From an uncultured Spirochaetota bacterium (lineage in GTDB: Bacteria; Spirochaetota; Spirochaetia; SZUA-6; Fen-1364), in assembly GCA_963781885.1 (NCBI GenBank), contig CAWAHW010000004.1, forward strand, positions 98,139 to 162,138: a stretch of 64,000 bases of DNA, in the 5' to 3' direction. Made by a program: the position numbers and the translations under genes. How positions within the stretch are numbered: position 1 is the first letter of the stretch; each line of letters begins with the position of its first letter. This document shows positions 20,874-36,008 of the stretch, in pieces. Below the pieces are notes generated by a model. The model was given only the letters and a program-made list of their open reading frames with translations, was not told the DNA's origin and made no database searches.

Positions 20874-22637
20874 TTGCAGAGCAAGGAGAGCGCCATCGTG
20901 GAGATGCACATGCAGGCGGAAGGGCAGAGCGAAACCGACAATTCCGTCACGCTGGGGCTTCTGCTGCGCAAGGATCGAGACGAGCCCAAGAGGAGCGCCG
21001 TGCAGCGGGTGCTCGCCCACCCCCTCACGATAGCGCAGAAGATCGAGGCCATCACGACCATCGACGAAAAGACCGATGCGGCAGGGGTGCTGCAGGCCGT
21101 GCGCGCCGCATCGGCGCAGATCGCGCACAATCACGCGCAGAGGATCGCCCAGGTCATCAAGAATGAGATTGCCACGCGCTCGCTCCTGGGCTTCCTGTTC
21201 ACGGATTTCGCCCGGGTGCAGAAGTTCGGCAGGAGGAAGTATGTGCTGGACGTGCGTCTCCTGCCCCCGCGGATGCGCGTCGATCCACGGCTGGAGGAGC
21301 TGCTCACCACCACGATCCGATCGGTGGGCCGCGACCTCTCGGCCTGCCTGGTGCGCGTCATCGCGCACGGATGGCTTCACCTCACGCCGAAACAGTACAA
21401 CCTGCTCGTGCTCCTGAAGCGTCTGGCCGATCGCGTGTCCGATTTCGATTTCACACGCCTGGACTTGTCCAGCAGGAAGGCCATCGAGAGGCTCCGGGGA
21501 ATCGAGTCACTCTTTCTGATGCTGCATTACAACGCCGACACGCTGCAGGTCATATTCGACGCGCTGCAATTCTTTTCCGAGAAGCAGCACGAGCCCGAGA
21601 GCGAGAATACGCGTGTCTTCGGGCTCATTCTCCAGCTCCTCACCGAGGATTGCACGGTTCCTTCCCTCTCCAACTGCATCCTGGGTCTCAACATGAGAAA
21701 GCATCGACGCTACCTCTCGCTGCGGAATCTCATGCGCGCGGACCTGGGCGAGATGGTCCACGTGGAGTTGTTCGACTTCGATTCCTCCATTCGCGCACGC
21801 GTGGAGAAGCGCATCGACGACACGCTGGAGTCCCTGCACGTGCTCCACGACCAGCTCCAGGAGGCGCGCCTCACCAGCAGCTACCTCGCGGTGGACGCGC
21901 AGGGCAGGCCGGACACGGGGGCTCTGAAGGAGCTCTACGAAGCGGGGACGGGCCGCGAATCGGATGGCTTCGACGAGGGCCAGGAGAATCTCGTCCTCTT
22001 TGTCTCGCGTCTCCTGCGGAGCTTCGACAAGGTCTTCTCTTCACTCCTGAACGGGAAGTGCGTCGTGGAATCGGTGGGGCGCGTCGAGCTTTTCTCCCCG
22101 TCGTTTTTCGCGCTGGACTTCACGAAGCTCAGGACCATTGCGGACAGGCTCGATCAGGAGCTTTTCCGCTACTCCCGCTTCCCGCTTTCGCGTTATCTCC
22201 GCATCAAGGAAGGACGGCTCCAGGCAATCGGGACGGAAATGGAGGTGAGCCAGCACATCCAGCAGGCCGTGGTGTGCCTTGCGGATCTCGGCAGGACGGT
22301 CATGAAGATCCTGAGCCTCCGCGTGCCGGCGCCGGCGCATGCGGAGGTGCGCGAGCCGCTTCAGCCGATCATTCTCCATGGCAAGGCATTCTCCATCGCC
22401 CTTGAAAACAGCCGTATCCAGGCAAAGTCGCTGCTCGGCGGTCTGACCGTCGGGCACGCCCTCCGCCACGCCGTGACGCTCTGCTTTTTGGCGGGCCTGC
22501 TCCTGCAAGATGATTTCGTCGCCATGCTACTCACCCGGGAGAAAAGGCTCGAACAGGAGCTGCGCGGGCGGCTGAAATCGCTCGCCGGCATGCTGGACCC
22601 GGTCAGCTACGAAGAGATCGCGTCGATCTACGCATGA
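20874..22637 (+). CDS. Hypothetical helical cytoplasmic protein (587 aa)
   Basis: Long uninterrupted ORF with host-like codon usage; no recognisable motif. Confidence 0.7.
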   Translation: MQSKESAIVEMHMQAEGQSETDNSVTLGLLLRKDRDEPKRSAVQRVLAHPLTIAQKIEAITTIDEKTDAAGVLQAVRAASAQIAHNHAQRIAQVIKNEIATRSLLGFLFTDFARVQKFGRRKYVLDVRLLPPRMRVDPRLEELLTTTIRSVGRDLSACLVRVIAHGWLHLTPKQYNLLVLLKRLADRVSDFDFTRLDLSSRKAIERLRGIESLFLMLHYNADTLQVIFDALQFFSEKQHEPESENTRVFGLILQLLTEDCTVPSLSNCILGLNMRKHRRYLSLRNLMRADLGEMVHVELFDFDSSIRARVEKRIDDTLESLHVLHDQLQEARLTSSYLAVDAQGRPDTGALKELYEAGTGRESDGFDEGQENLVLFVSRLLRSFDKVFSSLLNGKCVVESVGRVELFSPSFFALDFTKLRTIADRLDQELFRYSRFPLSRYLRIKEGRLQAIGTEMEVSQHIQQAVVCLADLGRTVMKILSLRVPAPAHAEVREPLQPIILHGKAFSIALENSRIQAKSLLGGLTVGHALRHAVTLCFLAGLLLQDDFVAMLLTREKRLEQELRGRLKSLAGMLDPVSYEEIASIYA

Positions 22638-25177
22638 GGCTCGCTCTCTCCGGCGGTCCGATTCAGCCAATCCGCAACCCATACGAGCGGGGCGTTCCAG
22701 TTGATTGCCACCTCGTTCGTCGAGAATGAGCCCAGGACATCGAGATAGCGCTGTGCGATGGGCGTACTTGAGAAGCCGGCAGCGCTCGTCTCGGGGTCCT
22801 CGATGTTTTTGTCAGGACCTCCCGTCAGGATGCCCGGAGGCGGTGCGGGGTATCCCGCCTCGGGATCATTGGCCCAGAGACGGTGATGCGGATGAGCGGC
22901 CGCATAGGCGCCGTAGCCGGTGACGAAGCTCCTTCGCAGGGCGTTGTCGCCGAGCAGGTAGTCCATGGAACGGACCACACCGTCGCGATACACGGGCTTT
23001 TTCGTCACGTCGAAGGCGATCGCCAGCACGATCGCGTTGTTGAGGATATTGCCGTTCGAGCCCCAGACGTAGCCGTCGGCGTCGATGGGCGCTCCGTAGG
23101 CGCTCTTGCCGGCAATCGCCAGATAGCGGTCGGCAGCGCGGACGATCTGCGTCGTCAGGAGCGCACGGTCCGAGGCGGCGATTTTGGCCTGGGGGGCGGA
23201 GATCAGCGAGATCGCGCCCAGGGCGGCCGTATCGCTCCAATCCATGGCGTGCGGCTTGCCCCCATCGAGCCCGGGGACGGCCTTCCAATACGGAGATGAC
23301 GACAGCCAGTCGAGATAGTCGCGCTCCCCGGTCGTGGCGAGGAGCTCGGCCGCTGCCCAGAAGAACTCGTCCGACACGTCCGCGTCCAGGTAGTTGCCTC
23401 CCCCATCGCCGGGGACGTTCCCCGCCAGGAGGCCGGGGTTCTCCCTGGCCGCCTTCCACGCGGCGCGGGCCGCGGTGAGGCAGCGTTGCGCGAAAGGCGC
23501 ATCCAGGGAGGCCCAGAGACGAGCAGCCTGGGCGGCAACGGCAGCGAGGTTCAGCGTGGCGGCGGTCGTCGGCTCGTAGACGAAGCGGCCCCAGGACCAT
23601 CCGTCCTTCCCGGTGATGTTGTTGTCCATTTCCGAGATGAGAGCGCTCGGCACGGCAGACCACGTGCGGTCATGGAGCTTCTGGAAGCACATCCCCGCGA
23701 GCTTCTGTCCGGCGGGAATCTGCATGTTCAGCATGAACTCGAGCTCCCAGCGGGCCTCGTCGAGGATGTCGGGCACACCATTCCCGCTTTCCGGAATGCC
23801 GAGCTGCCCGTCCGTGAAGCTGGCGGGAGCCCGTTCGTACGCGTTCTGCAGGGTCCAGACCGAGATGCCGCCGTTGACGACGTACTTTCCGAAGTCGCCG
23901 GCATCGTACCAGCCGCCCCGGCCGTTTACCAGGAAGCCGTATGCGTCCCAGGACTTGCCCTGGGCGTCCTTGCCGGCAAAGACCGCGACCTGCGCGTCCG
24001 TGAGATGTCCGGCCTCCCGGGCCCAGGCCGCGCCCGCGTACTCAGGCGTGATCGCAATGCCGCTGCGGCTTCGGTAGAAAAACTTGAGAGCGTCCTTCTC
24101 GAGGCCCGAGAGCATGTCATTCCCGATGCGGAAGGTCGGGCTCTGTCGATCTCCAATGACGATGTAATAGCTTCCGCTCACCGTGAACGAGGAAAAGTCC
24201 GCTGCCTGGGGAGCATCGCCCGAAACGGGATCGAAGGGGCGCGGCTCAGTGGTCCCGCGGGCGACCTCTTTGCCGCTCGTGGCGTCCACGAGCGACCAGG
24301 GCAGCGGTTCCCGACTCAACACAGGGACGGAGGCGACCTTTTTTCCGTACGGGAAGTAGCCGAGCTGGTTGATCGCAACAAGCGGCTGCACGGGTGCAGC
24401 CGGCGCGGGCTTCTGAGTCTGGAGCACGAGCCGGCTCGGCTGCGGGACGTCCGTGCTGCCGACCTTGAAAAAGAGGGCACGGCCGAAGAGGCTCGGATTC
24501 TGCCACGAGTTGTCGCCCGTGTCGGCCAGGGACCAGATCAGCTTGACGTTGCGGTCCTTTGTGGAGGCGCCGTTCAGTTGGGCCTGGAATCCGATCTCCT
24601 TGCCGTGGGAGGGCGCGTCTTTCGGTCCCAACGCTATCGCCCCTTCGAAACCCCAGCCATCCGCGGTCTTGAAAACCCTGGCCCGGAGCGGACGAACGGT
24701 GAAGTTGTTTCCCGAGACGTTGATCCTGGACAGGTCGGTGTTGCCAATGTCCAACGGCGTCACCCTGTATTGCGCAATGTCGCGGAGGTACTTTTTCGAG
24801 CCCAGGTCTCCCGAGAGGTTGACGTAGAACTCCATGGAATCCTCGTTCCACGTGTCAGCCCTGTGCGCGCCCGCGATGATGTTCTTGTCCTTCGCGAGCA
24901 TCAGGACATAGAAGTTGGTCTCGTCTGCTGCCACGGCGAAGCTGAAGGAGCCATCTTCGGCGCTGTCCCGGGACTTCATCGGGCCGCGGTCGACGGTCTG
25001 GACCGGGATGCCTTTCCAATCGTCCAGGGAGCCATCCAGCACGATGGAAACCGGGAAGGGCACGTAGACCGCCGTCCCCGTGATCTCGCTGGGCGCAACG
25101 GCCTCCTGCGCTCCCAGCGATAGTCCCGCTCCCCAAAAGCAAATGGAGACGAAGGATGCAGCGATGAACCTCTTCAT
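22628..25177 (-). CDS. Exported GH9 endoglucanase with N-terminal CBM9-like and Ig-like domains
   Basis: LDGSLDDW (CBM9-like), INQLGY, GGWYDAGDFGKY, GDGGGNY, HPHHR, STNEVAINWNAPL. Confidence 0.9.
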   Translation of the reverse strand: MKRFIAASFVSICFWGAGLSLGAQEAVAPSEITGTAVYVPFPVSIVLDGSLDDWKGIPVQTVDRGPMKSRDSAEDGSFSFAVAADETNFYVLMLAKDKNIIAGAHRADTWNEDSMEFYVNLSGDLGSKKYLRDIAQYRVTPLDIGNTDLSRINVSGNNFTVRPLRARVFKTADGWGFEGAIALGPKDAPSHGKEIGFQAQLNGASTKDRNVKLIWSLADTGDNSWQNPSLFGRALFFKVGSTDVPQPSRLVLQTQKPAPAAPVQPLVAINQLGYFPYGKKVASVPVLSREPLPWSLVDATSGKEVARGTTEPRPFDPVSGDAPQAADFSSFTVSGSYYIVIGDRQSPTFRIGNDMLSGLEKDALKFFYRSRSGIAITPEYAGAAWAREAGHLTDAQVAVFAGKDAQGKSWDAYGFLVNGRGGWYDAGDFGKYVVNGGISVWTLQNAYERAPASFTDGQLGIPESGNGVPDILDEARWELEFMLNMQIPAGQKLAGMCFQKLHDRTWSAVPSALISEMDNNITGKDGWSWGRFVYEPTTAATLNLAAVAAQAARLWASLDAPFAQRCLTAARAAWKAARENPGLLAGNVPGDGGGNYLDADVSDEFFWAAAELLATTGERDYLDWLSSSPYWKAVPGLDGGKPHAMDWSDTAALGAISLISAPQAKIAASDRALLTTQIVRAADRYLAIAGKSAYGAPIDADGYVWGSNGNILNNAIVLAIAFDVTKKPVYRDGVVRSMDYLLGDNALRRSFVTGYGAYAAAHPHHRLWANDPEAGYPAPPPGILTGGPDKNIEDPETSAAGFSSTPIAQRYLDVLGSFSTNEVAINWNAPLVWVADWLNRTAGESEPHA

Positions 25178-25320
25178 GGCTCCTGCTCCTGACTTCGATC
25201 GATTCAGCGCAGCTCTTTGTACCATGCGATTTTTCTGGCATCAATGATGGGAACGAGAAACTGTCTCTGTCGATCAGATCAAGCCCGGTCGCGCTGACGG
25301 CATGACGCCTCCGCGTGCCG

Positions 25321-26614
25321 TCAGGCTTCCACGACCTCCATGGCAATGCGCGCCCAGTCCCAGAGTCGGTCCGGTTTGTACATCACGGTGGAGATGTCCT
25401 TCATGATCACCTCCATGTGGCTGTCTTTCGCCCGGTCCAGGACATCCGTAAGCGCCGAGCGCGCCGTGCCCGGGTTCCAGGATTCCTCGACGAAGATCGC
25501 GGGGCTCGGCTTGAAGCTGAGCACGTAGTCCCCGGCCACGTCGCGGAGGATGCGCTCCGCGTTGCACCACGGGCTCATGGAGATCTTGCGGAGGTTCGGG
25601 ATGCGGCGCAGGAGCGCGATCTTGCGGTCCAGCGGCTCGCAGCAGCCATAGTACGTCAGCCCCCACCGGGACAGCCAGCGCAGGTCGTGACGCAGCGCGA
25701 ACTCCCAGTGCATCTCCGGGGACACCTCGGAAAATATCTGCGCGTTGGAGCAGCCCCACATGTTCTTCGGGAGCACGCGGGACGGGTCGAATCCCGCGCC
25801 GGGCAGGTCCCATGTGTATCCGTACCCGCCGGACCCGATTCGGGTGTTATTGCAGTCCAGCGCGAGGAGGTTCTGCTGCTCGAACTGGTCGAGCTCCACC
25901 ATCCACGCGTCCACCATGCGCTCCACCGCCGCGTTGACCATCGCGGGCCGCTCCACCAGGTCGATCATCGCCTCCTCGAGGCCCCACCAGCGGATGAGGT
26001 AGTCCCACGGCGTGAACCAGATGTGCGACTGCGCCGTCTTGCGGACGGGCATGATGCCCCGGAAGAGATCCTCCATGGCGGCAAAAGTCACGTCCGTCGT
26101 CTGCACGTCGTGCGTGACCACCGGGCATGTGGATCTTCTCGATGTCCGCCTCGGTCCTGATCTGCACGTGGAAGTGCCGGGAGACGATGTCGTTTGCCGC
26201 GTCGGTGCGCGCCACCTCCACGTCTTCCAGGATCCCGAAATCGGTGCTGTGGATGGCCATCGGGCACTCGATGAAGTCGCTCACCACCATGTCGCACGGC
26301 ATGTGCCTCCACTGGTACAGGGTGCGGCGGAGGCGCGTCTCCAGCTCGCGCGCCCAGGGGTCCGCGCAGTGAAGGGTGAGCTCGTTGTCCACGTTCATCT
26401 CGTGCCAGGGGATCTCGTTGATCCAGACCATGGGCCGCATGTTCTCAAGGTCATTGAGGCGTCGCCAGAGTCCTGCTTTTTCCCGGTGCACCGGCAGCGC
26501 CGCGACCGCGGCCAGCTCTGCGCCGAGGCGCTTCAGCGTCTCGCGCTCGGACGCGGAGAGCCGGATCTCACGGATCGAGAGGGGCGGCGCATAGCTTCCG
26601 GGATCGTGCAGCAT
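25321..26614 (-). CDS. URO-D/MetE-like TIM-barrel superfamily protein (frameshift near 26124)
   Basis: WRRLNDL..RPMVWINEIPW; C-terminal YYGCCEPLDRKI..LRRIPNLRKISMSPW; halves join across one indel. Confidence 0.7.
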
Positions 26615-27657
26615 TCAAGCGCTCCTGTACTCGCGGATGGTATCGAACATGGCGAGCACATTTGCCAGGGGCGTCTCAGGGAGAATCCAATCGTGACTCG
26701 CCCCGGCGACGTAGCCGCCGCCGGGCGCCATGATGTCCAGTATCGCCCGCGTGTCGGCGCGCACCGAGTCCGGCGTTCCCGTGATGAGCACGTGATGCGA
26801 GTCGATGGCCCCGTTGAGCACGATGCGCCTGCCGAAATCGCGCTTCAACGCGCGGGGCTCCATGCCCTCGCAGGACGGCTGCAGCGCGTGCACGGCATCG
26901 AGACCCGCCTTGATCATGGGGGGAATCAGCGGGCGGAAACCGCCGCAGCAGTGGAGCATGACCTTCTTCCCGAACCTGTGTCCCAGGTCGATGAGACGGG
27001 ACAGCGAGGGAAGCGCGAACTGCTCGAACAGATCGAGGCCGAGCAGCGGCCCGTCTGTGACCCGAAATCGTTGCCGATGAAGAAGATGTCGATCGCCGAG
27101 CCTGCCGCTTCGAACATGCGGCGGCTCACCTCGGCGTAGAAGTCGGTGATCTTCCGAAACAGCGCCTCCGCGGCGTCGGGATGGTCGTACATGAGGAAAT
27201 ACAGCCGGTCCAGGCCCATGAAATCGATGGCATCGTGCCAGAACGGCGACCAGTCGCCGCCCAGGATTGCGTACCGGCCGTCGTACTGCTCGGCCTCGGC
27301 CCTTGCCTGGCTCACGTCCATCCAGTCAGGGTCCGGCCAGGCGTAATCGAGGATGTCTTTCAGGCTCGACGCGTGCGCCAGCGGATGCGACAGCGGCTGG
27401 CCGTAACCGATGCCCGTCCGCTCGATCCCGAAGGGACTCTTCCACGTGGCCCCGGGCGACAGCCCGAGGTCCGGGCCCGCGTAGCGCGCGCTCACCCGGC
27501 GGAAATCGTCGCCAAGACGGACGCGCAGTCCCTCATCGTCCAGACCGAGCTCCGCCTTTGCCGCGTCCCAGAATGCCGGCGACGCGCCGCACCAGGCCGG
27601 CACCCGGTCGGGCTCGCGGTGGGCAAATGCCGTGAGCACTCGCTCGCGCGACGTCAC
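26615..27657 (-). CDS. URO-D/MtaA-CmuA superfamily protein (frameshift near 27060)
   Basis: MTSRERV....REPDRVP, GNDFGSQTG, LHCCG, GGGYVAGASH. Confidence 0.85.
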
Positions 27658-28835
27658 GGGCGGGCGCTCCCCACGTCGGGCTCATCACACTCCTCCAGTG
27701 ACAGCGGGTAGCGGCCGTGCGTGCGCGCGAGGTTCACCACGTACTCATAGCGTTCCGCGCTCACATTGGTGGGCACGGAATGATCCGACTGGAAGATGTA
27801 GCCGCCGCCGCGTGCCGCGTTCAGCTTGCGCAGCACCTGACGCCGCAGCTCCGGCAGCGGCGCATTGGCCCATGCAAGAACGTCCATGTTGCCGCAGAAT
27901 CCCATGCGGTGACCGTATTTCCGGCGGAGATCCACGACGTCCAGGCCTGATTTCGCCTCGAGGGGATTGTACGCGTCCAGACCCATGGCGATGAAATCGT
28001 CATAGATCAGCGTCGCATTCCCGCACCCGTGGTAGATCACCGGCAGGCCCGCCTCATGGCAGATGCGGATCTGCTCCGCGACGATGGGACGGAAATGCCG
28101 CCGCCAGAAGTCGGGGGAAAAGAGCATCCCGTTCACGTAGGCCACGTCGCCCCAGATCACCATGCCGTCCAGCAGCCCGGCGCCGGCCTTGATCTGCGCC
28201 TTTGTCATCTCGATGAGAAACTCACCGACGCGCTCGATGAAGCGTCCCAGCTCGTCGGGGTAGAGGCCGATCCACATCATGACGTTCTCTGTCCCCACGA
28301 TGCGCCAAAGCTGCTCGTGACCCTCGCAGATGCTGCCGTACACGGGGAAATCCGGGTGGAGCGACTTCACCGTCTCGATCCATGCCGGGCTGTTGCGCGT
28401 GAACCCGTCGCCGACACCGGCGATCTGGTTGTCACCCGCCGCGTGAAAACGCCGCTCGTCCCAGGGGTCGTCGAACCGGAAGGCTTCCATCTTTTCCAGG
28501 GAATCAGTCTCGAAGCCGACATAGTCCGGCATCGGGTCGGCGAACTTCTTGCGGATGATCGCCTCATACCCGGTCCGCACCACCACTTCCTCCTGGTTCT
28601 CCCGGACGATCTCGAAGGGCTTGATGTGCGGATCCATATTGGGAGTCGTGACCTCCCAGTCCAGGTCATAGTGGCGGTAGATATCCGCATCAGCGGGCAG
28701 GCCGAGCTCGGCGCGCCACCGCGCCAGGAAACCGCCCCAGAAGAAGTCGCTGACAGGGACCCTGTCCGACTCCCGGTGATGCAGGGCGGCGTCCATGCGC
28801 GCGATCTTCCGCAGGCAATTGTCGCTTCGCGTCAT
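27654..28835 (-). CDS. URO-D/MtaA-CmuA superfamily protein
   Basis: HRESDRVP, WGDVAY, YHGCGN, GFCGNMD, GGGYIFQSDHSVP. Confidence 0.85.
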   Translation of the reverse strand: MTRSDNCLRKIARMDAALHHRESDRVPVSDFFWGGFLARWRAELGLPADADIYRHYDLDWEVTTPNMDPHIKPFEIVRENQEEVVVRTGYEAIIRKKFADPMPDYVGFETDSLEKMEAFRFDDPWDERRFHAAGDNQIAGVGDGFTRNSPAWIETVKSLHPDFPVYGSICEGHEQLWRIVGTENVMMWIGLYPDELGRFIERVGEFLIEMTKAQIKAGAGLLDGMVIWGDVAYVNGMLFSPDFWRRHFRPIVAEQIRICHEAGLPVIYHGCGNATLIYDDFIAMGLDAYNPLEAKSGLDVVDLRRKYGHRMGFCGNMDVLAWANAPLPELRRQVLRKLNAARGGGYIFQSDHSVPTNVSAERYEYVVNLARTHGRYPLSLEECDEPDVGSARP

Positions 28836-28849
28836 GTCATTCTCCGCGA

Positions 28850-29173
28850 TCAATCGAGATGGAAGACTTCTTCCATCTCGGACCACCACTCCCCGGGGGA
28901 TCGGTTGTCCAGCGGCTTCTGCATCGGCTCCATGATCGCCCACCACTCCTGCGTGCGGGGATCCGCGGCCATCTTCGCCATGTCCGCGTCGTAGTCGGAT
29001 CCGACGTATTCGAAGTAGGCGAAGAGCAGGTCGTCCTTCAGGTAGATGGAATAGTTGCGGATATTGCACGCGGTGATCGTGGCCAGGACGTCCGGCCATA
29101 CCTTCGCGTGGTGCCGTTTGTAGGCGGCAAGATGTTCGGGTCGAATCCCGATAAGCTGTCCGTGCCGGATCAT
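28850..29173 (-). CDS. rhaM: L-rhamnose mutarotase family
   Basis: YKRHHAKVWP, IRNYSIY, TQEWW, WWSEMEEVFHLD. Confidence 0.9.
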   Translation of the reverse strand: MIRHGQLIGIRPEHLAAYKRHHAKVWPDVLATITACNIRNYSIYLKDDLLFAYFEYVGSDYDADMAKMAADPRTQEWWAIMEPMQKPLDNRSPGEWWSEMEEVFHLD

Positions 29174-29298
29174 GGGGACCTCCCTCCCGCGGGCCGGAAA
29201 CAGCCGCCTCCCGAACGCCGCGGAATACGCGGGCACGCGTGCCGCCCGAAGGCGGCACCGTGAGGGGAAGGCGGCCCTCAATCAGGACGAGGTCCTGC

Positions 29299-30504
29299 TT
29301 ACCACTGGGGCGGATAGAACTTGGCGACGTCGGCCGCGGTGATGACGTGCTGGGCCAGGTTCTTGCGGATCGCGAATCCCTTGCCGTTAAACCAATCCGC
29401 GGCGGTCTGTGCGGAGAGCGCGCCATCGCCTTCGGCGGTCTGGTAGGTGATCCCGTAGAGCTTGCCTGCCTTCACCAGGTCCATGCCCTGCTTCGAGTTG
29501 CCTGCCGCCACAACAACGACATCCGTGCGGCCGGCCTTTTCGAGGGCCTGCATGATGCCCAGTGCCTGTCCCGAGTCATCCGCTGCGCAGATCCCCTTGA
29601 GGTCCGTCCCGTACTTCGTGAGCCAGTCGGATACGATCTGCATCGTAGCGTTGGCATCGAAGGTGGCGGGAGCGGGTGACGCCATGGCGAGGGTCTTCAC
29701 CTCGGGGGCGTAGGTGGTGAGCTCCGCCGCCGCATTGTAGGAGCGCGCGAAGTAAGGCGATCCGCCCGGTGCATGCTGAACGTAACACACGCCGATGCTC
29801 TTGGCGCCCGGGTTCTGCTTGCGCAGCTGGTCGGCCCAGGCGCGCGCGAGAAGGCGGAACTGTCCGAAATCGTCCGGCCCGGTCCAGCCGAGGGAGTAAT
29901 TGAGCGCCTCGTTGTCCGGCAGCGTGTTGAACATGTGCAGGGGGATGCCGGCCGCGTTGATCTTGCGGGCCTGCTGGATGCCGGCCTTGGCGTCGAGCGG
30001 GATGAGAAGGATCATGTCCGGCTTCGCCGCGATGGCCTGATCGATGAGCTGGTTCTGGACGTTCAGGTCCCAGTTCGGGGAGAGGGCCTTGAAATTCCAT
30101 TTGTATGCATCCGCCACCTTCTTGGCGCCGAGGATGCAGGCCGTGGTCCAGGGATGATCGCCATGGACGATCATGATGACCGTTTTGCCAATGGCGCCGT
30201 CACCGGGCGATTTCGGGAGGTTCGTCGGGGTGACCTTCCAGCCCGCCCACTCCATGTCATAGAAGTGCATGACATTGGTCATGGGGAGCGCATTCGGGTC
30301 CGCGGGCCGGGCCGGCACCGCGGCGGGGGCGGGCGCGGACGAGACGAGCGGCTGACCGTCGGCGGACTGCAGCACCCTCGTGTCAACGGCGAGCGAGGCC
30401 TTCAGGTTCGCCTGTTGGGCGGCCGTCAGGGTCTGGCCGAAAGCCGGCGTGACGAGCGCCACAAGGGCGAGCACGACCACAAGGAACGGGAGTCTTTTCA
30501 TCAA
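29299..30504 (-). CDS. Monosaccharide ABC solute-binding protein (RbsB-like) with N-terminal extension
   Basis: Signal peptide; periplasmic binding protein type 1 pattern. Confidence 0.85.
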   Translation of the reverse strand: MMKRLPFLVVVLALVALVTPAFGQTLTAAQQANLKASLAVDTRVLQSADGQPLVSSAPAPAAVPARPADPNALPMTNVMHFYDMEWAGWKVTPTNLPKSPGDGAIGKTVIMIVHGDHPWTTACILGAKKVADAYKWNFKALSPNWDLNVQNQLIDQAIAAKPDMILLIPLDAKAGIQQARKINAAGIPLHMFNTLPDNEALNYSLGWTGPDDFGQFRLLARAWADQLRKQNPGAKSIGVCYVQHAPGGSPYFARSYNAAAELTTYAPEVKTLAMASPAPATFDANATMQIVSDWLTKYGTDLKGICAADDSGQALGIMQALEKAGRTDVVVVAAGNSKQGMDLVKAGKLYGITYQTAEGDGALSAQTAADWFNGKGFAIRKNLAQHVITAADVAKFYPPQW

Positions 30505-30591
30505 ACTGCCTCCTTACATATTTCCATCCGGTTTTCGCCCCCCTGTCACGGTACTCCGTGACGTTGGGCGTCCCGGAAATGGTCCGGTGGT

Positions 30592-31638
30592 TTACGAGCC
30601 CGCGGCTTTCCTTCCGCGGGCCGCCGACGCGCGCTCGGCAAGCTCTTTCATGAGCTCGGGCCGCTGCCCGAGGCTCTTTTCATGCCGGTAGACGGCATAC
30701 GCCTCGTAGAGGACGACGTAGGCCAGGATGAGGCCGGCGAAGAAGATCTTCACCTCGTTGCCGAGGCCGAAGAGGATGATTCCCGTGTACAACATCTCGA
30801 GGGTCATGATGGCGACGATGCTCCGCAGGACGCCTCCCTTGCCCCCCGACATTGCGGTGCCGCCGATGATGGTGGCCGAGATGACGTACATGAGCGAGTT
30901 GTCGCCAAGGTTCAGCGTGGCGGAGGTCGAGACGAGGACCGAGACGACCCCGCCGATCGCGGCCATCGCGCCCGAGAGCACGAAAGCGGCAATCAGGTAG
31001 CGGTCCGTATTGATGCCCGCGAGCCAGGCCGTCGTGCGGTTGCCGCCCACCATGTAGAAATTACGCCCCGCCCTCGTGCGCACGAGAATCAGCTCGATGA
31101 CGATCACCAGCGCGAGCATGATGACGATGCGCGGCGTGACGAGGGGCAGGAAGTTTTTACCGAGGAAATCCGAGATCGCGAACGCCTGGTCGTTGGAGAC
31201 GCTGATCGAGTTGCCGCCCGAGAACTGGTAGACCGTTCCGCGGAGGATCGTCATGGTCCCCAGCGTCACGATGAAGGAGTTGATCTTTGCCTTGGCCACG
31301 AGCACACCGTTGAGAAGCCCGACGAGTGCGCCGCCGAGCACGGCCACCACGATGGCTGCGGGAAAGCCGAGGAGAGGCTCGAGGCCGAGGGCGAGCGCGC
31401 CGGAGAATGTGACGACGCTGCCGATGGAAAGGTCGAGCTGGCCGCAGATCATCACCACGGTGAAGCCAATGGCCGCCGTCGCGTTCAGCGCGATTGCGTT
31501 GAGGATGGCGGTGAAGTTGGAGACGGTGAAGAACTTCGGCGCCAGGAGGGACATGAAGGCGAAAACGACGACGAGGAGGATGTAGATCCTGTACTTGTCT
31601 CCCAGGGCGAGGAGGTTGTTTCGTGCCGCCTTACGCAT
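30592..31638 (-). CDS. Monosaccharide ABC permease (RbsC-like)
   Basis: GQLDLSIG, FIVTLG, IIGGTAMSGGKG. Confidence 0.92.
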   Translation of the reverse strand: MRKAARNNLLALGDKYRIYILLVVVFAFMSLLAPKFFTVSNFTAILNAIALNATAAIGFTVVMICGQLDLSIGSVVTFSGALALGLEPLLGFPAAIVVAVLGGALVGLLNGVLVAKAKINSFIVTLGTMTILRGTVYQFSGGNSISVSNDQAFAISDFLGKNFLPLVTPRIVIMLALVIVIELILVRTRAGRNFYMVGGNRTTAWLAGINTDRYLIAAFVLSGAMAAIGGVVSVLVSTSATLNLGDNSLMYVISATIIGGTAMSGGKGGVLRSIVAIMTLEMLYTGIILFGLGNEVKIFFAGLILAYVVLYEAYAVYRHEKSLGQRPELMKELAERASAARGRKAAGS

Positions 31639-32600
31639 CGTCCCTCCCGAGCCGCCGGAGCGACAGCGCGTTGACGCCGACCACGATGATGAAGATCGCG
31701 CCGCGGACCATGTCCTGGGAGAAGGTATTGATGCCGATGAGCGTCATGATGTTGTTCAGGATCGCGATGATGAGCGATCCGCCGAGCACGCCCAGGATGG
31801 TGCCCCGTCCGCCGGCGAGGGTCATGCCCCCGATGACGATGGCCGTGACGGCCTTGAAATCGTAGCCGGCGCCGTTGTACCAGGCGCCCACGCGCGCCAG
31901 GGAGGTGACCGCCAGACCGGGCAATGGTCGCCGTGAAGGCGGCGAAAACGAACGAAATCATGACGGCGCGCTCGACGGCAATGCCGGACAGCTTCGCGGC
32001 GCGTATCGACGAGCCCGTCATCTTGAGCTTGACGCCGAACGACGTGCGCGTCAGCACGAACTGACCCACCACGACCAGAACGAGCAGGATGACGAGCGGC
32101 AGGCCGATGAGGTTGAAGAAGCGGAGACGGTAGATGCTGTCGAAAAGGGCCACCGCGTGCTGCTCGGAGCCCACCATGTCGGGGTAGATCTGCTTGTTCA
32201 CCCACACCAGGCGGATGACGCCCATCGTCACGTAGTTCACCGCGAGGGTCCAGATGATGGGGTTGGCCTTGAACTTGCCGACCACGAAACCGTTGACGAT
32301 GCCGATGAGCAGGCCGACCGCCAGGGAACCGACGATGGCAACCACGAAGCCGTAGCGGAGGAGCTCGATGCAGATGTAACCGGTGAAACCCATCGTCGTC
32401 GGCGCCGACATGTCGGCGTAGTTGCCCGAATACGTCACGAAGGCCATGCCCACGGCCACGATGCCGACGAGCGCCGCGGCATCGACGATGTTGAGCATGT
32501 TCTTGGCGGACAGGAAGTTCCCAATGGCGCCGGTGGCCTGGAGCAGCGCGCCCAGGATGAGGAAGAGAAGCGCGATGCCATACACGCCCGCCGTGTTCAT
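31631..32600 (-). CDS. Monosaccharide ABC permease (RbsC-like), frameshift near 31925
   Basis: GMAFV...DMSAP; continues as GLAVTSLAR...AIVIGGMTLAGGRG; start approximate. Confidence 0.82.
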
Positions 32601-32643
32601 GATGGCTCGAGAAGGGATCCCGTCCGGAGGGTGCGCGCGTCGC

Positions 32644-34168
32644 TCACCGGCAGGCCCCGCGACTGGTGTCGCCATTGGCGGCAAGGAGGAGGCTCTCCTC
32701 GCTGCATTCGCTGTAGAGCACCTCGCGGATGAAGTGGCCCTTGCGCATGATCATCACCCGGTCGGAGAGGCCGACGAGCTCCGGCAGGTCAGAGGAGATG
32801 AGGATGACGGTGCAGCCTTCACGCGCGAGCTTCTCGATCGAGGCGTGGATGGTCATCTTGGCGCCGATATCCACTCCCCGCGTCGGCTCGTCGAGGATGA
32901 GGACCTTGGGCTCGCTCGCCAGCCACTTGGCAAGGAGGACCTTCTGCTGGTTGCCCCCCGAGAGGTTCGCCGACCGGCCGCGACGGAACCGGCGGGTAGA
33001 TGGAGAGCTCGCCGATGAGCCGGTCCACCGCCGGCTTGCCGCGCGCCTTGGAGAAGACCGCGGCACGGGAAAGCCTGTCGACGATCGCCGAGAGGATATT
33101 GTCGTCAACGGGGAGCCTGATGGCGAGACCTTCCGTCTTGCGGTCCTCCGTGAGGTAGGAGATGCCCTGCGCGAGGTAGTCGGCCATGCTCGACCCGCGC
33201 ACGCGCGCACCGTCGAGCTCGATCGAGCCCTCGTCCGCGCGGTCCAGCCCGGCAAGCACTTTCGCAAGCTCGGTGCGCCCGGCGCCCGACAGCCCGCAGA
33301 TGCCGAGGATCTCGCCGCGCCGCGCCTCGAAGCCGACCTCGTGGAAGAACCCGAACCGGGACAGCCCCTTGACGCGGAGTCGCACATCCCCGATGGGGCG
33401 CGCCTCTCGCTTGTAGAACTCCTTCACCGACCGGCCCACCATCATCTGCACGATCTCCTCGTGGCTCGCTTCCCCGATGGGCACGGTCGCGATTTTTTTC
33501 CCGTCCCGCATGACCGTGACCCGGTCCGCGATCTGGAAGATCTCGGGAAGATGGTGGGAGATGTAGACGATCGCGATCCCGCGGTGCTTCAGGTCGCCGA
33601 TGATGGCGAAGAGCCGGTCCACCTCCTCGCGGGAGAGGGCGCTCGTCGGCTCGTCCATCACGAGGATGGAAGGCTTGTTCCCGAGCACCTTCGCGATCTC
33701 GACGAGCTGGGCCTCGTGCTGGCTGATATCCTCAATCGGAAGATTCGGGTCGAGGTCGAGACCCACGGAGGCCAGGAGCTCCCGGGCCTGGGCCCGGGCG
33801 CGGGCCTTGTCGAGGAAGAGACCCCGGCGCGGCAGCCGGCCCGCCAGGAGATTCTCCGCGATGCTGATGGGCCGCGCGAGACTGAGCTCCTGGTAGATCA
33901 TGCCAATGCCGTGGCGCTTGGCGAGCGTCGGGGAGTGGAGCAGGGCGACCCTGCCTGCAATTGCGATCTCGCCCGTGTAGTCATCGAAGGAGCCGGCGAG
34001 CATCTTCATCAGCGTCGACTTGCCCGCGCCGTTCTCTCCGACCAGGGCGTGGACCTCGCCGGCCCGAACGTCGAAGCTCACGTCGTCGACGGCGATGGTG
34101 CCGGGGAAGCGCTTGCCCACGTGTCTCATCTCGAGCGCCAGCCCGGACGGCGATTCGCTCACTCTCAC
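32644..34168 (-). CDS. Monosaccharide ABC ATP-binding protein (RbsA/MglA-like), frameshift near 32975
   Basis: GENGAGKST, MDEPT, TEDRK, LSGGNQQKV, DEPTRGVDIGAK. Confidence 0.9.
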
Positions 34169-34268
34169 TCTCCTTGAAGGGGACGCGGACGCGCCGCGCC
34201 CCCGGGGTCGGGGGATTGGTGGAGCAATCCTACGCCGCGTCAGCCGGACGTCGCAACAACAAAAACTT

Positions 34269-36008
34269 TCACTTTTGCTTCAAAGAATGCACGGGCTCGT
34301 CATCGCGGCAGGCCTTCGCCTTCGATTCTGATGGATAGTAGCCCTTGTATTTCTTGAACAGCGTGTAGAAGTAATTCACGTTCGTGTAGCCGATGCGCGC
34401 CGCGATGTCGCTCGCCTTGAGCGACGTGTAGCGCAGGAGATCCTCCGCCTTGCGGATGCGCAGCTCGTTGAGATAGGTGGCAAAGGGCTTGCCCACCGCC
34501 GTGTGGAACTGCCGTCCGAGGTAGGGGGCGGAGATGCCGAACTGCGCCGCGAGGATCTTCAGGGACAGCGGCTCGGCGTAGTTGCGCGTGACGTAGCGGA
34601 TGATGCGCACGATCGGCGTCTCGGCCTGCCGCGCGCGCGCGAGGGCGCGAATGGCCTCCTTCGCCATGCTCATCATCCACTCCAGCGCGCGCCGCGGCGT
34701 CTTCTGGTTGAAGAGGTTCTTGTAGAGGCTCTCGTAGTCGCTGAGGAGCGCCTGCTCGTCCAGGTCGTTCAACTTCAGCACGTGGATGAGCGCGGAGAGA
34801 ACCTCGATGGAAAAGCCGCTGAAGAACTCGGGGGTGACGAGCTCGGCCGAAAGCAGGCTTTGGTAGGAGTCCTCGAAGAATCGCTCCACCTCCTCCTCGC
34901 TGCCGGCCACGACGGCGCGCGTCAGGCTCTCGATGGAGACCGTGGAAAAGACGGGTTTCTTGGAGATGAAGTCGTCCACGTTCTCACGGGTGATGATGTG
35001 CTTGGGCAGGTAGTTGATGGGCTGCACGTCCAGGCCGCTGAACCAGTCGACGGCGATCTTCATTGCCAGCGCGCCGTCGGCCTGCGCGGGTTGGAACGTG
35101 ATGGCGTGCAGGCGGCCGGCCTTCACGTGGCTCATGCCCGTATGGGTCGATCCCGCTCCGACGCGCACGATATCCTCGCGCCCGGCCGCGCGCAGGGCCT
35201 CATTGATCCCCCCCATGGCAATGTCGTCGTCGGGCCCCACGATGCCCCGTAGCTCGGCGCCGAACTGATGCAGCCAGCCCGTCACGAGCTGCGCCGCCAG
35301 GGCCGGATCGAATGTCCCCTCCCGGCTGCCCTCACCCATGGCGAGGCAGCGCATACGGGGCGCCACGGCGGCGAGCTCCGTGACGATCGACCACGTGCGC
35401 GCCTCGTAGCACGAGCTGCCCGGCATGTGGCGCACGATGGCGTAGCCGCCCTGGTGGCGCAGCCTCTCCGCGAAGCTGCGCGCGAGCATCCGATACTGCC
35501 CCCAGTCGTCGGGCCCGCACCAGGCGAGGATGAATCGGTACGCCTCCTCGTCGGGGATGAAATTGCTCACGATGACGGGGATGGCGCGCGCGTGCAGCTG
35601 CTGAACCCAGCGCGTGCAGGCTCCGGAGCTGATGGGAACGAGGATCACGAGGTCCGTCTTCTCCGCGATGGCCCGCTGCACCTGCTCGTCCTGGCTCTCC
35701 ATCGTCATTGCCCCGGCCAACGTGCGGAGATCCACGCCTGCCCGTTCGGCGATGCGGGTGAGGCCCTCCGCGAAGGCGACATGATAGGGATGCAGACCGG
35801 GCTGGAGGAACGTGACCCGCTTGCCCCGGGCTCCATCTCCGAGGGATTCCGGAATGCCGCACTTCTGGATGCCCCACCCGGCGTACTCCTTGTCGTACCA
35901 ATGCCGCGCGTCGGTTTTCGGGTACTGGGACGGGTTGCGTGGACGCGGGGGGACGTCCTTCTGCCGCGTATTCCACGATATGAGGAGCCGGTCGCTGCTT
36001 GAGAACAT
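34269..36008 (-). CDS. AraC-family regulator with periplasmic-binding-protein-like sensor domain
   Basis: C-terminal YLGRQFH...YLNELRIRKAEDLL...GYTNVNYFYTLFKK; N-terminus aligns by eye to the SBP at 29299-30504. Confidence 0.88.
   Translation of the reverse strand: MFSSSDRLLISWNTRQKDVPPRPRNPSQYPKTDARHWYDKEYAGWGIQKCGIPESLGDGARGKRVTFLQPGLHPYHVAFAEGLTRIAERAGVDLRTLAGAMTMESQDEQVQRAIAEKTDLVILVPISSGACTRWVQQLHARAIPVIVSNFIPDEEAYRFILAWCGPDDWGQYRMLARSFAERLRHQGGYAIVRHMPGSSCYEARTWSIVTELAAVAPRMRCLAMGEGSREGTFDPALAAQLVTGWLHQFGAELRGIVGPDDDIAMGGINEALRAAGREDIVRVGAGSTHTGMSHVKAGRLHAITFQPAQADGALAMKIAVDWFSGLDVQPINYLPKHIITRENVDDFISKKPVFSTVSIESLTRAVVAGSEEEVERFFEDSYQSLLSAELVTPEFFSGFSIEVLSALIHVLKLNDLDEQALLSDYESLYKNLFNQKTPRRALEWMMSMAKEAIRALARARQAETPIVRIIRYVTRNYAEPLSLKILAAQFGISAPYLGRQFHTAVGKPFATYLNELRIRKAEDLLRYTSLKASDIAARIGYTNVNYFYTLFKKYKGYYPSESKAKACRDDEPVHSLKQK

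Follow-up and report, generated by a model that had tools for sequence, protein, structure and literature searches.

A run of nine minus-strand genes, evident from the open reading frame (ORF) list and from Pfam, occupies positions 25321-36008 of the 64-kb window, the whole stretch of DNA analysed here, which comes from an uncultured Spirochaetota bacterium (positions 98139-162138 of contig C4 of its genome, G000; this contig contains 16,000 N). The run encodes a hybrid regulator, an ATP-binding cassette (ABC) importer of the CUT2 type, an L-fucose-type mutarotase and three divergent proteins with the fold of uroporphyrinogen decarboxylase (URO-D), referred to as U1, U2 and U3. These three proteins are credible candidates for the oxygen-free removal of methyl groups from fucose-like sugars. 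The favoured reading, given a little less than an even chance, is that methylated fucose is O-demethylated in a B12-dependent manner through a shared corrinoid hub encoded away from the operon. It draws on gene content, folds, conserved residues, gene neighbourhoods and co-occurrence with corrinoid machinery, from which we infer a substrate, a methyl-transfer chemistry and the use of the unlinked hub.

Three divergent proteins of the URO-D fold

U1 is the sole URO-D gene of the operon that is uninterrupted in the present assembly, and it matches the Pfam URO-D family (PF01208) with an E value of 1e-22 (80.8 bits; cut-off 23.9). The two pieces of the frameshifted U2 match the N- and C-terminal halves of URO-D in Pfam, while an intact U2 orthologue reaches E 1.5e-29 (103.6 bits; same cut-off). 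Identity between U1 and U2 is 25% over 164 aa. Scores against narrower families are low: U1 gives 27.4 bits with the HemE equivalog TIGR01464 (cut-off 303) and is therefore not HemE, and the U2 and U3 pieces give no match to that model. With the MtaA/CmuA models TIGR01463 and PRK06252, U1 gives 32.7 and 43.9 bits without reaching the cut-offs of 235 and 244, and the C-terminal piece of U2 gives 30-36 bits with models of this type, also below cut-off. The best NCBIfam models for U1 are of the methylcobalamin:coenzyme M methyltransferase type, slightly above HemE, all of them far below cut-off. U1-U3 can thus be described as members of the URO-D fold superfamily that lie outside HemE and outside the curated MtaA/CmuA families.

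The AlphaFold model of U1 (pLDDT 74.7) is a (beta/alpha)8 barrel of the HemE/MtaA type, as is the predicted model of a U3 orthologue. The top structural matches of U1 are HemE (2eja) and MtaA (4ay7/4ay8), and the top 26 PDB matches are all one or the other (TM 0.55-0.67), both about equally good (~0.6). Weaker matches include MetE (3ppc, 3bq5), tagatose epimerase and class II aldolase. Residues 60-150 form an insertion of ~90 residues that is modelled with low confidence. In an alignment of the window's U1 with co-located orthologues (50-80% identical, n=21), residues H269, C271, E293, D351 and H352 are at least 95% conserved; H269-G-C271 forms a His-x-Cys motif and E293 lies 22 residues past the Cys. 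In U2, H236-C-C238, H257 and H322 are conserved across phyla. A His-x-Cys followed by a Glu ~22 residues on is the Zn-site pattern of MtaA- and MetE-type alkyl transferases; the matching of His-x-Cys in U1 and U2 to the MtaA ligands is presumed from the motif only, and its metal role is putative.

That U1-U3 are ordinary HemE uroporphyrinogen decarboxylases of haem synthesis is effectively excluded. U1 and U2 do share the fold and Pfam family of HemE, the C-terminal His of the HemE G-H-G region aligns with U1 H352, and many records among the >5,000 homologues of U1 are named 'uroporphyrinogen decarboxylase' in databases. Yet the equivalog score of U1 is 27 bits where 303 are needed, PDB HemE sequences match at E 1e-3 only, and a His-x-Cys motif replaces the aligned HemE residues, the Cys-containing motifs being absent from HemE at that position. 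Three divergent copies, moreover, stand in a sugar operon with no tetrapyrrole context, and the genome as a whole encodes ~20 URO-D-fold proteins (~18 Pfam URO-D paralogues and two U3-type genes). An earlier note on this DNA had favoured a role other than that of HemE; the score of U1 bears this out, His-x-Cys is retained across phyla in U1 and U2, and the three motifs the note had named are present (VIYHGCGN in U1, MLHCCGG in U2 and YYGCCEP in U3).

U3 belongs to a family, here called YGCCEP, with >6,000 homologues (2,049 clusters at 50% identity), all of them labelled hypothetical. It has no match in Pfam, even at E <= 10, or in NCBIfam, and resembles neither U1 nor U2 in sequence or profile (hhalign probability against the U1 profile 0.2%); its profile retrieves only noise, with no sequence match, from the PDB. 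A model of the U3 orthologue P0122 (85% identical, full-length), built on 97 diverse sequences, is predicted with high confidence (pLDDT 95.4, pTM 0.93), and all 25 of its PDB matches with E <= 1e-3 are HemE or MtaA (TM 0.45-0.62). Since sequence and profile searches all failed and the fold search succeeded, U3 is assigned to the URO-D fold at the level of predicted structure only. The earlier claim of three URO-D-fold genes is upheld in that all three have the fold, with the qualification that for U3 this is known from a structure model and that U2 and U3 are frameshifted. W286, Q292, E304, Y322, G323, C324, C325, E326, R342, K368 and E401 are nearly invariant in U3, and its identity across phyla is 57-69%. 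A second U3-type gene of the genome (G000:C1:106467-107889; 45-53% identical) extends over three frames and adjoins ABC ATPase-like genes.

Operon layout, sugar and assembly quality

The features of the run are as follows (window coordinates, strand, assignment and its basis).
34269-36008, minus: hybrid regulator, Peripla_BP_4 plus AraC helix-turn-helix (HTH), 579 aa (Pfam)
32644-34168, minus: CUT2-type ABC ATPase with two nucleotide-binding domains, frameshifted (orthology to an intact relative)
31635-32684 (3' end approximate), minus: permease 1, BPD_transp_2 type, frameshifted (orthology)
30592-31638, minus: permease 2, 348 aa, intact (ORF and orthology)
29299-30504, minus: secreted substrate-binding protein, 401 aa (Pfam Peripla_BP_4, E 6e-33)
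29174-29298, minus: spacer of 125 nt between the binding-protein and mutarotase genes (RNA folding)
28850-29173, minus: RhaM-superfamily mutarotase of FucM type, 107 aa (Pfam rhaM, PDB match)
27654-28835, minus: U1, URO-D-fold protein, 393 aa, intact (Pfam URO-D)
26615-27657, minus: U2, URO-D-fold protein, 347 aa in relatives, frameshifted (Pfam URO-D)
25321-26614, minus: U3, YGCCEP family, 431-433 aa in relatives, frameshifted (URO-D fold by structure model only)

The operon is intact in four genomes of the same genus (G019, G007, G005 and G018), and in a 42.5-kb JGI metagenome contig; in these intact relatives U1 is of 393 aa, U2 of 347 aa and U3 of 431-433 aa. The first gene is the hybrid regulator and not, as previously proposed, an rbsA-like gene, the ATPase gene coming next. 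The regulator possesses a Peripla_BP_4 domain at residues 73-321 (E 3e-24) and HTH_18/HTH_AraC matches, and it holds the same position in G007, G005 and G019. Its sensor part shows 41-49% identity to orthologues of the binding protein that the operon itself encodes and is thus a paralogous domain; as a copy of the binding-protein domain, it suggests from sequence that the cell probably senses the imported sugar unchanged in the cytoplasm. The N-terminal segment H(W/F)YD.E(Y/W)AGW is common to the sensor domain and the secreted binding protein.

The importer consists of a Peripla_BP_4 binding protein, two BPD_transp_2 permeases and one two-domain ATPase, the composition of a CUT2 system, with permeases and ATPase assigned by orthology to Pfam-annotated genes of the intact JGI contig. 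The two halves of the ATPase lie in different frames (N-terminal 32819-34168, C-terminal 32644-33387), its orthologue in that contig being a 513-aa protein with two ABC_tran domains. The translation of permease 1 leaves the frame after ~255 residues (orthologue 343 aa, BPD_transp_2), whereas permease 2 is intact and 81-89% identical to intact orthologues, the one in the JGI contig being of BPD_transp_2 type. The binding protein bears an N-terminal extension of ~100 aa. Its closest solved relatives are CUT2 monosaccharide-binding proteins, and because these match at E 1e-14 only, its ligand is not readable from homology.

From the mutarotase gene to U1, U2 and U3 the gaps are 14, -4 and 0 nt; wider gaps precede the ATPase gene (100 nt), the binding-protein gene (87 nt) and the mutarotase gene (125 nt). 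A pattern scan of the run found no convincing minus-strand terminator, and this, with the tight spacing, makes a single transcript plausible. The earlier description of a co-transcribed run therefore holds for the minus-strand gene order, tight from mutarotase to U3, with co-transcription itself only plausible. The 125-nt spacer folds at -72.2 kcal/mol (z -2.6) and contains a perfect GC hairpin, GUGCCGCC-UUCG-GGCGGCAC, with no U tract; this hairpin is largely deleted in G019 and is thus not a conserved part of the operon. Downstream of U3 by 95 nt, at 22628-25225 on the minus strand, a secreted 865-aa protein of the CBM9/CelD_N/GH9 endoglucanase type is encoded. It was considered as a member of the module and rejected, as it is not at the corresponding place in the loci of four relatives and is probably a mere neighbour.

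The mutarotase points to the sugar. It belongs to Pfam rhaM (PF05336; E 1e-35, 122 bits), in keeping with the rhamnose mutarotase named in the earlier note, but it is far closer to the solved L-fucose mutarotase (PDB 7BYU/7BYW; E 2e-37, 131 bits, full length over its 107 aa) than to YiiL of E. coli (E 2e-9, 40 bits), and it scores 56.8 against the NCBIfam YiiL_rotase equivalog, whose cut-off is 99.6. According to the citation of Watanabe et al. 2020 in PMC11199699, the 7BYU/7BYW enzyme is FucM of the non-phosphorylating fucose pathway; the setting differs here, where the gene stands beside URO-D-fold genes and an ABC importer.

The neighbourhoods of U3 were examined in a wider sample. A pattern scan restricted to a single genome of each species yielded at least 600 U3 genes, of which the best 80 (57-80% identical to the query) were studied, their neighbours within 10 kb being clustered and then annotated with Pfam. 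These loci span Spirochaetota, Bacteroidota, Verrucomicrobiota, Planctomycetota, Acidobacteriota, Armatimonadota, Chloroflexota, Bacillota, Lentisphaerae and others, and two of the 80 records carry the name of a cultured species, one being a strain genome (Faecalicatena contorta) and the other a metagenome-assembled genome, MAG (Victivallis vadensis). Neighbours were found in the following numbers of the 80 U3 loci.
U1-like URO-D protein: 35
GH29 alpha-L-fucosidase: 26
ABC ATPase: 23
ABC permease: 18
ABC binding protein: 17
sulfatase: 13
mutarotase: 11
SSF transporter: 11
LacI regulator: 10
AraC regulator: 10
RhaT: 8
MFS: 8
GH95: 7

GH29 fucosidase is the commonest glycosidase beside U3 across phyla, and no kinase, aldolase or isomerase family recurs within 10 kb of the 80 loci. 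U1-type and U3-type genes are co-located in ~22 loci, and U3 stands alone in 35. A cassette of URO-D gene, ABC importer, U3, URO-D gene and mutarotase recurs in Bacillota, Spirochaetota and Planctomycetota; the one in Faecalicatena contorta includes a GDSL esterase, consistent with removal of sugar decorations. At the other extreme, the minimal unit AraC-U3-MFS of Victivallis vadensis suggests that such units supply one extra step ahead of a standard pathway.

Given the FucM-like mutarotase and the GH29/GH95 glycosidases among the neighbours, the sugar is of the fucose type, with the substrate itself proposed from gene content. Of the methyl-rhamnose/fucose-type deoxysugar envisaged earlier, the fucose alternative is retained and the rhamnose one is not. 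The operon was confirmed to hold no kinase, aldolase or corrinoid gene, so that it resembles a module that prepares a decorated deoxysugar for later catabolism. Among the decorations, sulfate and acetyl groups are already served by sulfatases and esterases, and the methyl ether is the one left without an enzyme of its own. A full-length FucI is encoded on the same contig, ~225 kb from the operon, and a canonical 600-aa FucI occurs in about half of the U3-bearing genomes; the idea that U3 replaces FucI was rejected on these grounds.

Four of the nine genes contain 1-bp indels, which were placed by alignment to the orthologous intact locus of G019 (88% identical): an extra base at ~32968 (ATPase), ~31919 (permease 1) and ~26123 (U3), and a missing base at ~27052 (U2), all four in short G/C runs. 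Because relatives of the same genus carry the operon intact, these are probably errors of long-read assembly and not gene decay. A codon-usage scan of the 4.64-Mb, 7-contig genome (63% G+C; shadow ORFs removed), which detected just two of the operon's four breaks, found ~351 similar frame breaks, and against a 98.7% identical assembly (G009:C34) the window shows 25 one- or two-base indels over 11 kb, mostly in short G/C runs. The assembly thus appears to be an unpolished long-read consensus, and apparent pseudogenes anywhere in it are to be distrusted. A fused and a split ABC gene on the long contig of another relative (L001 1-2378, ENA contig_22064: an ATPase and a permease fused into 710 aa, then a permease fragment of 96 aa) suggest the same kind of error in a second long-read assembly.

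That the operon is truly decaying in this strain, an issue independent of what the families do, is accordingly improbable. It draws some support from the density of breaks, four in 10.7 kb where a rough genome-wide estimate predicts 0.8-1.6 (P 0.01-0.08), and from the recurrence of those at 27052 and 31919 in G009:C34. However, positions 26123 and 32968 are unaffected in the latter assembly, which in turn shows many indels that the window lacks; uncorrected errors in a long-read consensus give such a pattern, and indels common to both assemblies can arise as systematic basecalling errors. The codon-usage scan, moreover, records similar breaks across the genome while catching only two of the four here. 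Splits also affect other URO-D paralogues and the second copy of U3, the operon contains no premature stops, deletions or insertion sequences, and the orthologues are intact in the four congeners.

Candidate corrinoid partners in the genome and across phyla

No B12-binding domain was found on the 809-kb contig that holds the window. A search of the whole genome for corrinoid proteins, as the earlier note had recommended, returned three small ones, two beside other URO-D genes and one an orphan. A single intact RACo of 630 aa is also encoded (the 'stop inside' flag on its match reflects an alignment running past the stop codon of the gene, and the ORF is intact), together with a pterin-binding methyltransferase homologue at C1:267229-268050 (tblastn), one DUF1638 protein and three homocysteine-methyltransferase homologues, all dispersed. 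A corrinoid protein, a pterin-binding homologue and a reductive activator are therefore all present, unlinked to the operon, which agrees with the alternative of unlinked partners that the note had raised.

Both of the corrinoid/URO-D modules of this genome are accompanied by regulators. One, at G000:C2:104275-107409 (L097 6275-9409), consists of a PocR-AraC regulator, a 211-aa corrinoid protein and a URO-D/MtaA-like gene that is the best Pfam URO-D match of the genome (E 1e-56), with no pterin-binding enzyme or activator alongside. The other, at C2:68464-71295, comprises a LuxR-type response regulator, a corrinoid protein and a frameshifted URO-D gene.

Among 50 U3-bearing genomes of other lineages, all 50 contain a B12-binding_2 domain; in 49 a listed match lies in an open frame of ~210-290 aa, the exception being G047 with a frame of 567 aa. 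RACo (PF14574) is present in 48 of the 50, which come from other phyla, and in one of 14 control genomes. In a planctomycete order that includes one U3 bearer, 6 of 100 other genomes have RACo and none has U3 (48/50 against 6/100, Fisher p = 6e-30). Such co-occurrence with corrinoid machinery is not proof of use. Two tests were set aside as uninformative: the genome-wide presence of a corrinoid protein, which is found in 50/50 U3 genomes and equally in 41/41 genomes of the window's own order, and the presence of RACo inside that order (39/41).

Nine U3 genomes have a single B12-binding_2 match, and eight of them hold 6-62 Pfam URO-D matches. In the four of the nine whose surroundings were annotated, the corrinoid gene sits with regulators and other hub parts and with no substrate methyltransferase; examples are PocR-AraC/corrinoid protein/DUF1638/RACo in a 2.3-Mb Clostridia genome and AraC/corrinoid protein/homocysteine methyltransferase/pterin-binding enzyme in Victivallis. 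High URO-D counts with one B12-binding_2 match each were recorded in G063 (Armatimonadota, 60), G083 (Chloroflexota, 62), G069 (labelled Nitrospiraceae, 34) and G089 (Acidobacteriota, 25). In G089 a corrinoid protein, RACo and two strong URO-D genes adjoin at C14:173426-177308.

The clearest physical link of the YGCCEP family to corrinoid methyl-transfer parts was seen on a peat Bacteroidales contig, where GH29, U3, an MFS transporter, a second transporter, PfkB, a corrinoid protein and a pterin-binding enzyme follow one another tightly on one strand. This run lies at L032 8459-16431 (MAG SPRUCE 633), with the corrinoid protein split into two ORFs. On a Treponemataceae contig a PocR-AraC regulator and a corrinoid protein come directly after the cassette, and on the contig of a relative a corrinoid protein and DUF1638 are found ~4-6 kb from its U1 gene.

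Proposed mechanism, alternatives and significance

The imported substrate would be a decorated 6-deoxyhexose of the L-fucose type, with an O-methyl fucose released from glycans of plants, algae or microbes as the likeliest case. It would enter as the free sugar through the CUT2 system and be sensed in the cytoplasm by the hybrid regulator's copy of the binding-protein domain. U1, U2 and U3, as ancient and very divergent enzymes of the URO-D/MtaA fold, would act as substrate:corrinoid methyltransferases (the methyltransferase I, MT I, role) and would probably differ from one another in the sugar or the methyl position that they recognise. The sugar-O-CH3 bond would be polarised by a bound metal, for which His-x-Cys plus Glu in U1 and His-x-Cys plus His in U2 are candidate ligands, and cob(I)alamin, carried by a small corrinoid protein distinct from these enzymes, would accept the methyl group. 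The methanol:corrinoid methyltransferase is a precedent for the breaking of an alkyl C-O bond by cob(I) with the help of a metal. The corrinoid protein would then be unloaded to tetrahydrofolate by the pterin-binding methyltransferase, or by a homocysteine methyltransferase, and be reactivated by RACo; encoded elsewhere, the corrinoid protein, RACo and pterin-binding enzyme would form a hub shared by the ~20 URO-D-fold paralogues. The FucM-type mutarotase would equilibrate the anomers of the L-fucose produced, which would pass to the FucI pathway.

Several known systems resemble parts of this scheme. MtaA, MtbA and MtsA (PDB 4AY7/4AY8) share the (beta/alpha)8 URO-D fold, are top matches of U1 and are among the 25 significant matches of U3; a His-x-Cys at the end of a barrel strand occurs in U1 and U2, and MtaA-type models are the best, weak matches of U1. 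Unlike them, U1 reaches 33-44 bits against family cut-offs of 235-244 and has the ~90-residue insertion, U3 is without the His, no corrinoid gene is adjacent, and the context is sugar uptake and not methylotrophy; the host, moreover, is a bacterium and not a methanogen, so that coenzyme M is an unlikely acceptor. The three-component O-demethylases of acetogens and Desulfitobacterium (Odm, Vdm, Mtv) follow the logic proposed here of MT I, corrinoid protein, methyltransferase II (MT II) and activator; all partner types occur in the genome, and one locus, that of Bacteroidales, joins U3, a corrinoid protein and a pterin-binding enzyme. Their substrates, however, are aryl methyl ethers and their genes are clustered with an adjacent corrinoid protein, in contrast to the alkyl (sugar) ether and dispersed partners here. 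A precedent for a shared hub is Eubacterium limosum, in which several MttB-family methyltransferases use one corrinoid protein and one methylcorrinoid:tetrahydrofolate methyltransferase, with one activator. The enzymes there are of the MttB fold instead of the URO-D fold, and their substrates are quaternary amines instead of sugars.

In the literature searched, the only sugar O-demethylases found were oxygen-dependent cytochrome P450s of marine bacteria, which act on 6-O-methyl-D-galactose (PMC6292453). These likewise clear away a methyl ether that stands in the way of sugar breakdown, and their genes accompany those for glycan degradation, but as haem monooxygenases with redox partners the enzymes are unrelated in fold and chemistry. 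The same search returned no URO-D-like enzymes associated with mutarotases or fucosidases.

A number of points weigh against B12-dependent demethylation by U1-U3. Neither the operon nor its 809-kb contig encodes a corrinoid protein, and a corrinoid protein lies within 10 kb in only 2 of the 80 U3 loci, where ~1 is expected by chance. Characterised corrinoid systems usually have the substrate methyltransferase beside the corrinoid protein, and the genome's two other corrinoid protein/URO-D pairs do adjoin. Lifestyle and the gene-rich genomes of anaerobic glycan degraders confound the association with RACo, the baseline of which comes from one order; in the window's own order RACo (39/41) and corrinoid proteins (41/41) occur with or without U1. 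On the enzyme side, the model of U1 is only moderately confident, U3 has G-C-C-E in place of a motif with the His of His-x-Cys, and the homology of the binding protein stops short of naming its ligand. An alkyl (sugar) methyl ether is harder to cleave than an aryl one, and corrinoid-dependent sugar demethylation was not found in the literature searched. The excess and the partial recurrence of frameshifts discussed above, which may mean that the operon is decaying in this strain, count on the same side.

Other chemistries have to be weighed against these points. The same role, the stripping of a methyl or similar ether from a fucose-type sugar, could be performed without a corrinoid if a metal centre passed the methyl group straight to tetrahydrofolate or a thiol, as in MetE, or if two barrels cooperated as they do in MetE. 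The rarity of adjacent corrinoid genes would follow naturally from this, the spacing in U1 (H-x-C, with Glu 22 residues on) is that of cobalamin-independent methionine synthase, MetE structures are among the weaker matches of U1, and U1-type and U3-type genes occur together in ~22 loci. We nevertheless regard a corrinoid-free enzyme as distinctly unlikely. Towards an unactivated alkyl methyl ether, cob(I) is a far stronger nucleophile than a thiolate or folate N5, the near-universal RACo and corrinoid proteins of U3 genomes would be coincidence, and the Bacteroidales run would be left unexplained; an obligate two-barrel complex is unlikely because U3 so often stands alone (35/80).

Somewhat less unlikely, though still improbable, is that no demethylation takes place and that U1-U3 catalyse another metal-dependent step (isomerisation, epimerisation, dehydration or decarboxylation) on L-fucose, L-galactose or a derivative, opening a new route into deoxyhexose catabolism or a new branch of it. 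The product of a mutarotase normally goes to the first catabolic enzyme that is anomer-specific, which here would be U1 at a gap of 14 nt; sugar isomerases and epimerases are among the metal-binding TIM barrels, and U1 has the weak matches to tagatose epimerase and class II aldolase. The 57-69% identity of U3 across phyla is that expected of a core catabolic enzyme, and canonical FucI is found in only about half of the U3-bearing genomes. On the other hand, HemE and MtaA are the sole strong structural relatives, His-x-Cys is a signature of alkyl-transfer enzymes and is not known from sugar isomerases, no kinase, aldolase or dehydrogenase ever comes with the cassette, and the present genome already has FucI. 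The 25-62 Pfam URO-D matches per genome also fit a radiation of substrate specificities better than a single pathway step.

Demethylation through the corrinoid hub may also be placed in a broader setting, which we put forward more tentatively than the mechanism for this operon. U1, U2 and U3 of sugar operons may be the sugar O-demethylases, independent of oxygen, that have so far been missing. They would form the spokes of a dispersed network whose one hub of corrinoid protein, RACo and pterin-binding enzyme, encoded elsewhere, would serve from a few to ~60 substrate-specific methyltransferases per genome. Glycan degraders of eight or more phyla would have such a network, among them Lachnospiraceae of the gut, Victivallis, and soil Acidobacteriota and Planctomycetota.

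New here are the fucose assignment via FucM, the URO-D fold of the YGCCEP family, the association with RACo and corrinoid hubs, and the Bacteroidales run of U3, corrinoid protein and pterin-binding enzyme. Methyl ethers on sugars block ordinary catabolism. Examples are the 2-O-methyl-fucose and 2-O-methyl-xylose of pectin rhamnogalacturonan II, and methylated deoxyhexoses occur in algae, mosses, cyanobacteria and soil polysaccharides. If the proposal is true, a gap would be filled in the anaerobic glycan turnover of guts, peat and sediments, and a function would be given to thousands of proteins now named 'uroporphyrinogen decarboxylase' or 'hypothetical' (>5,000 homologues of U1 and >6,000 of U3). 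It would also explain the orphan corrinoid-protein/RACo modules of non-acetogenic bacteria and would tie polysaccharide degradation to the availability of vitamin B12. As the U3 family is present in culturable organisms such as Faecalicatena contorta and Victivallis vadensis, its proposed role is directly testable.

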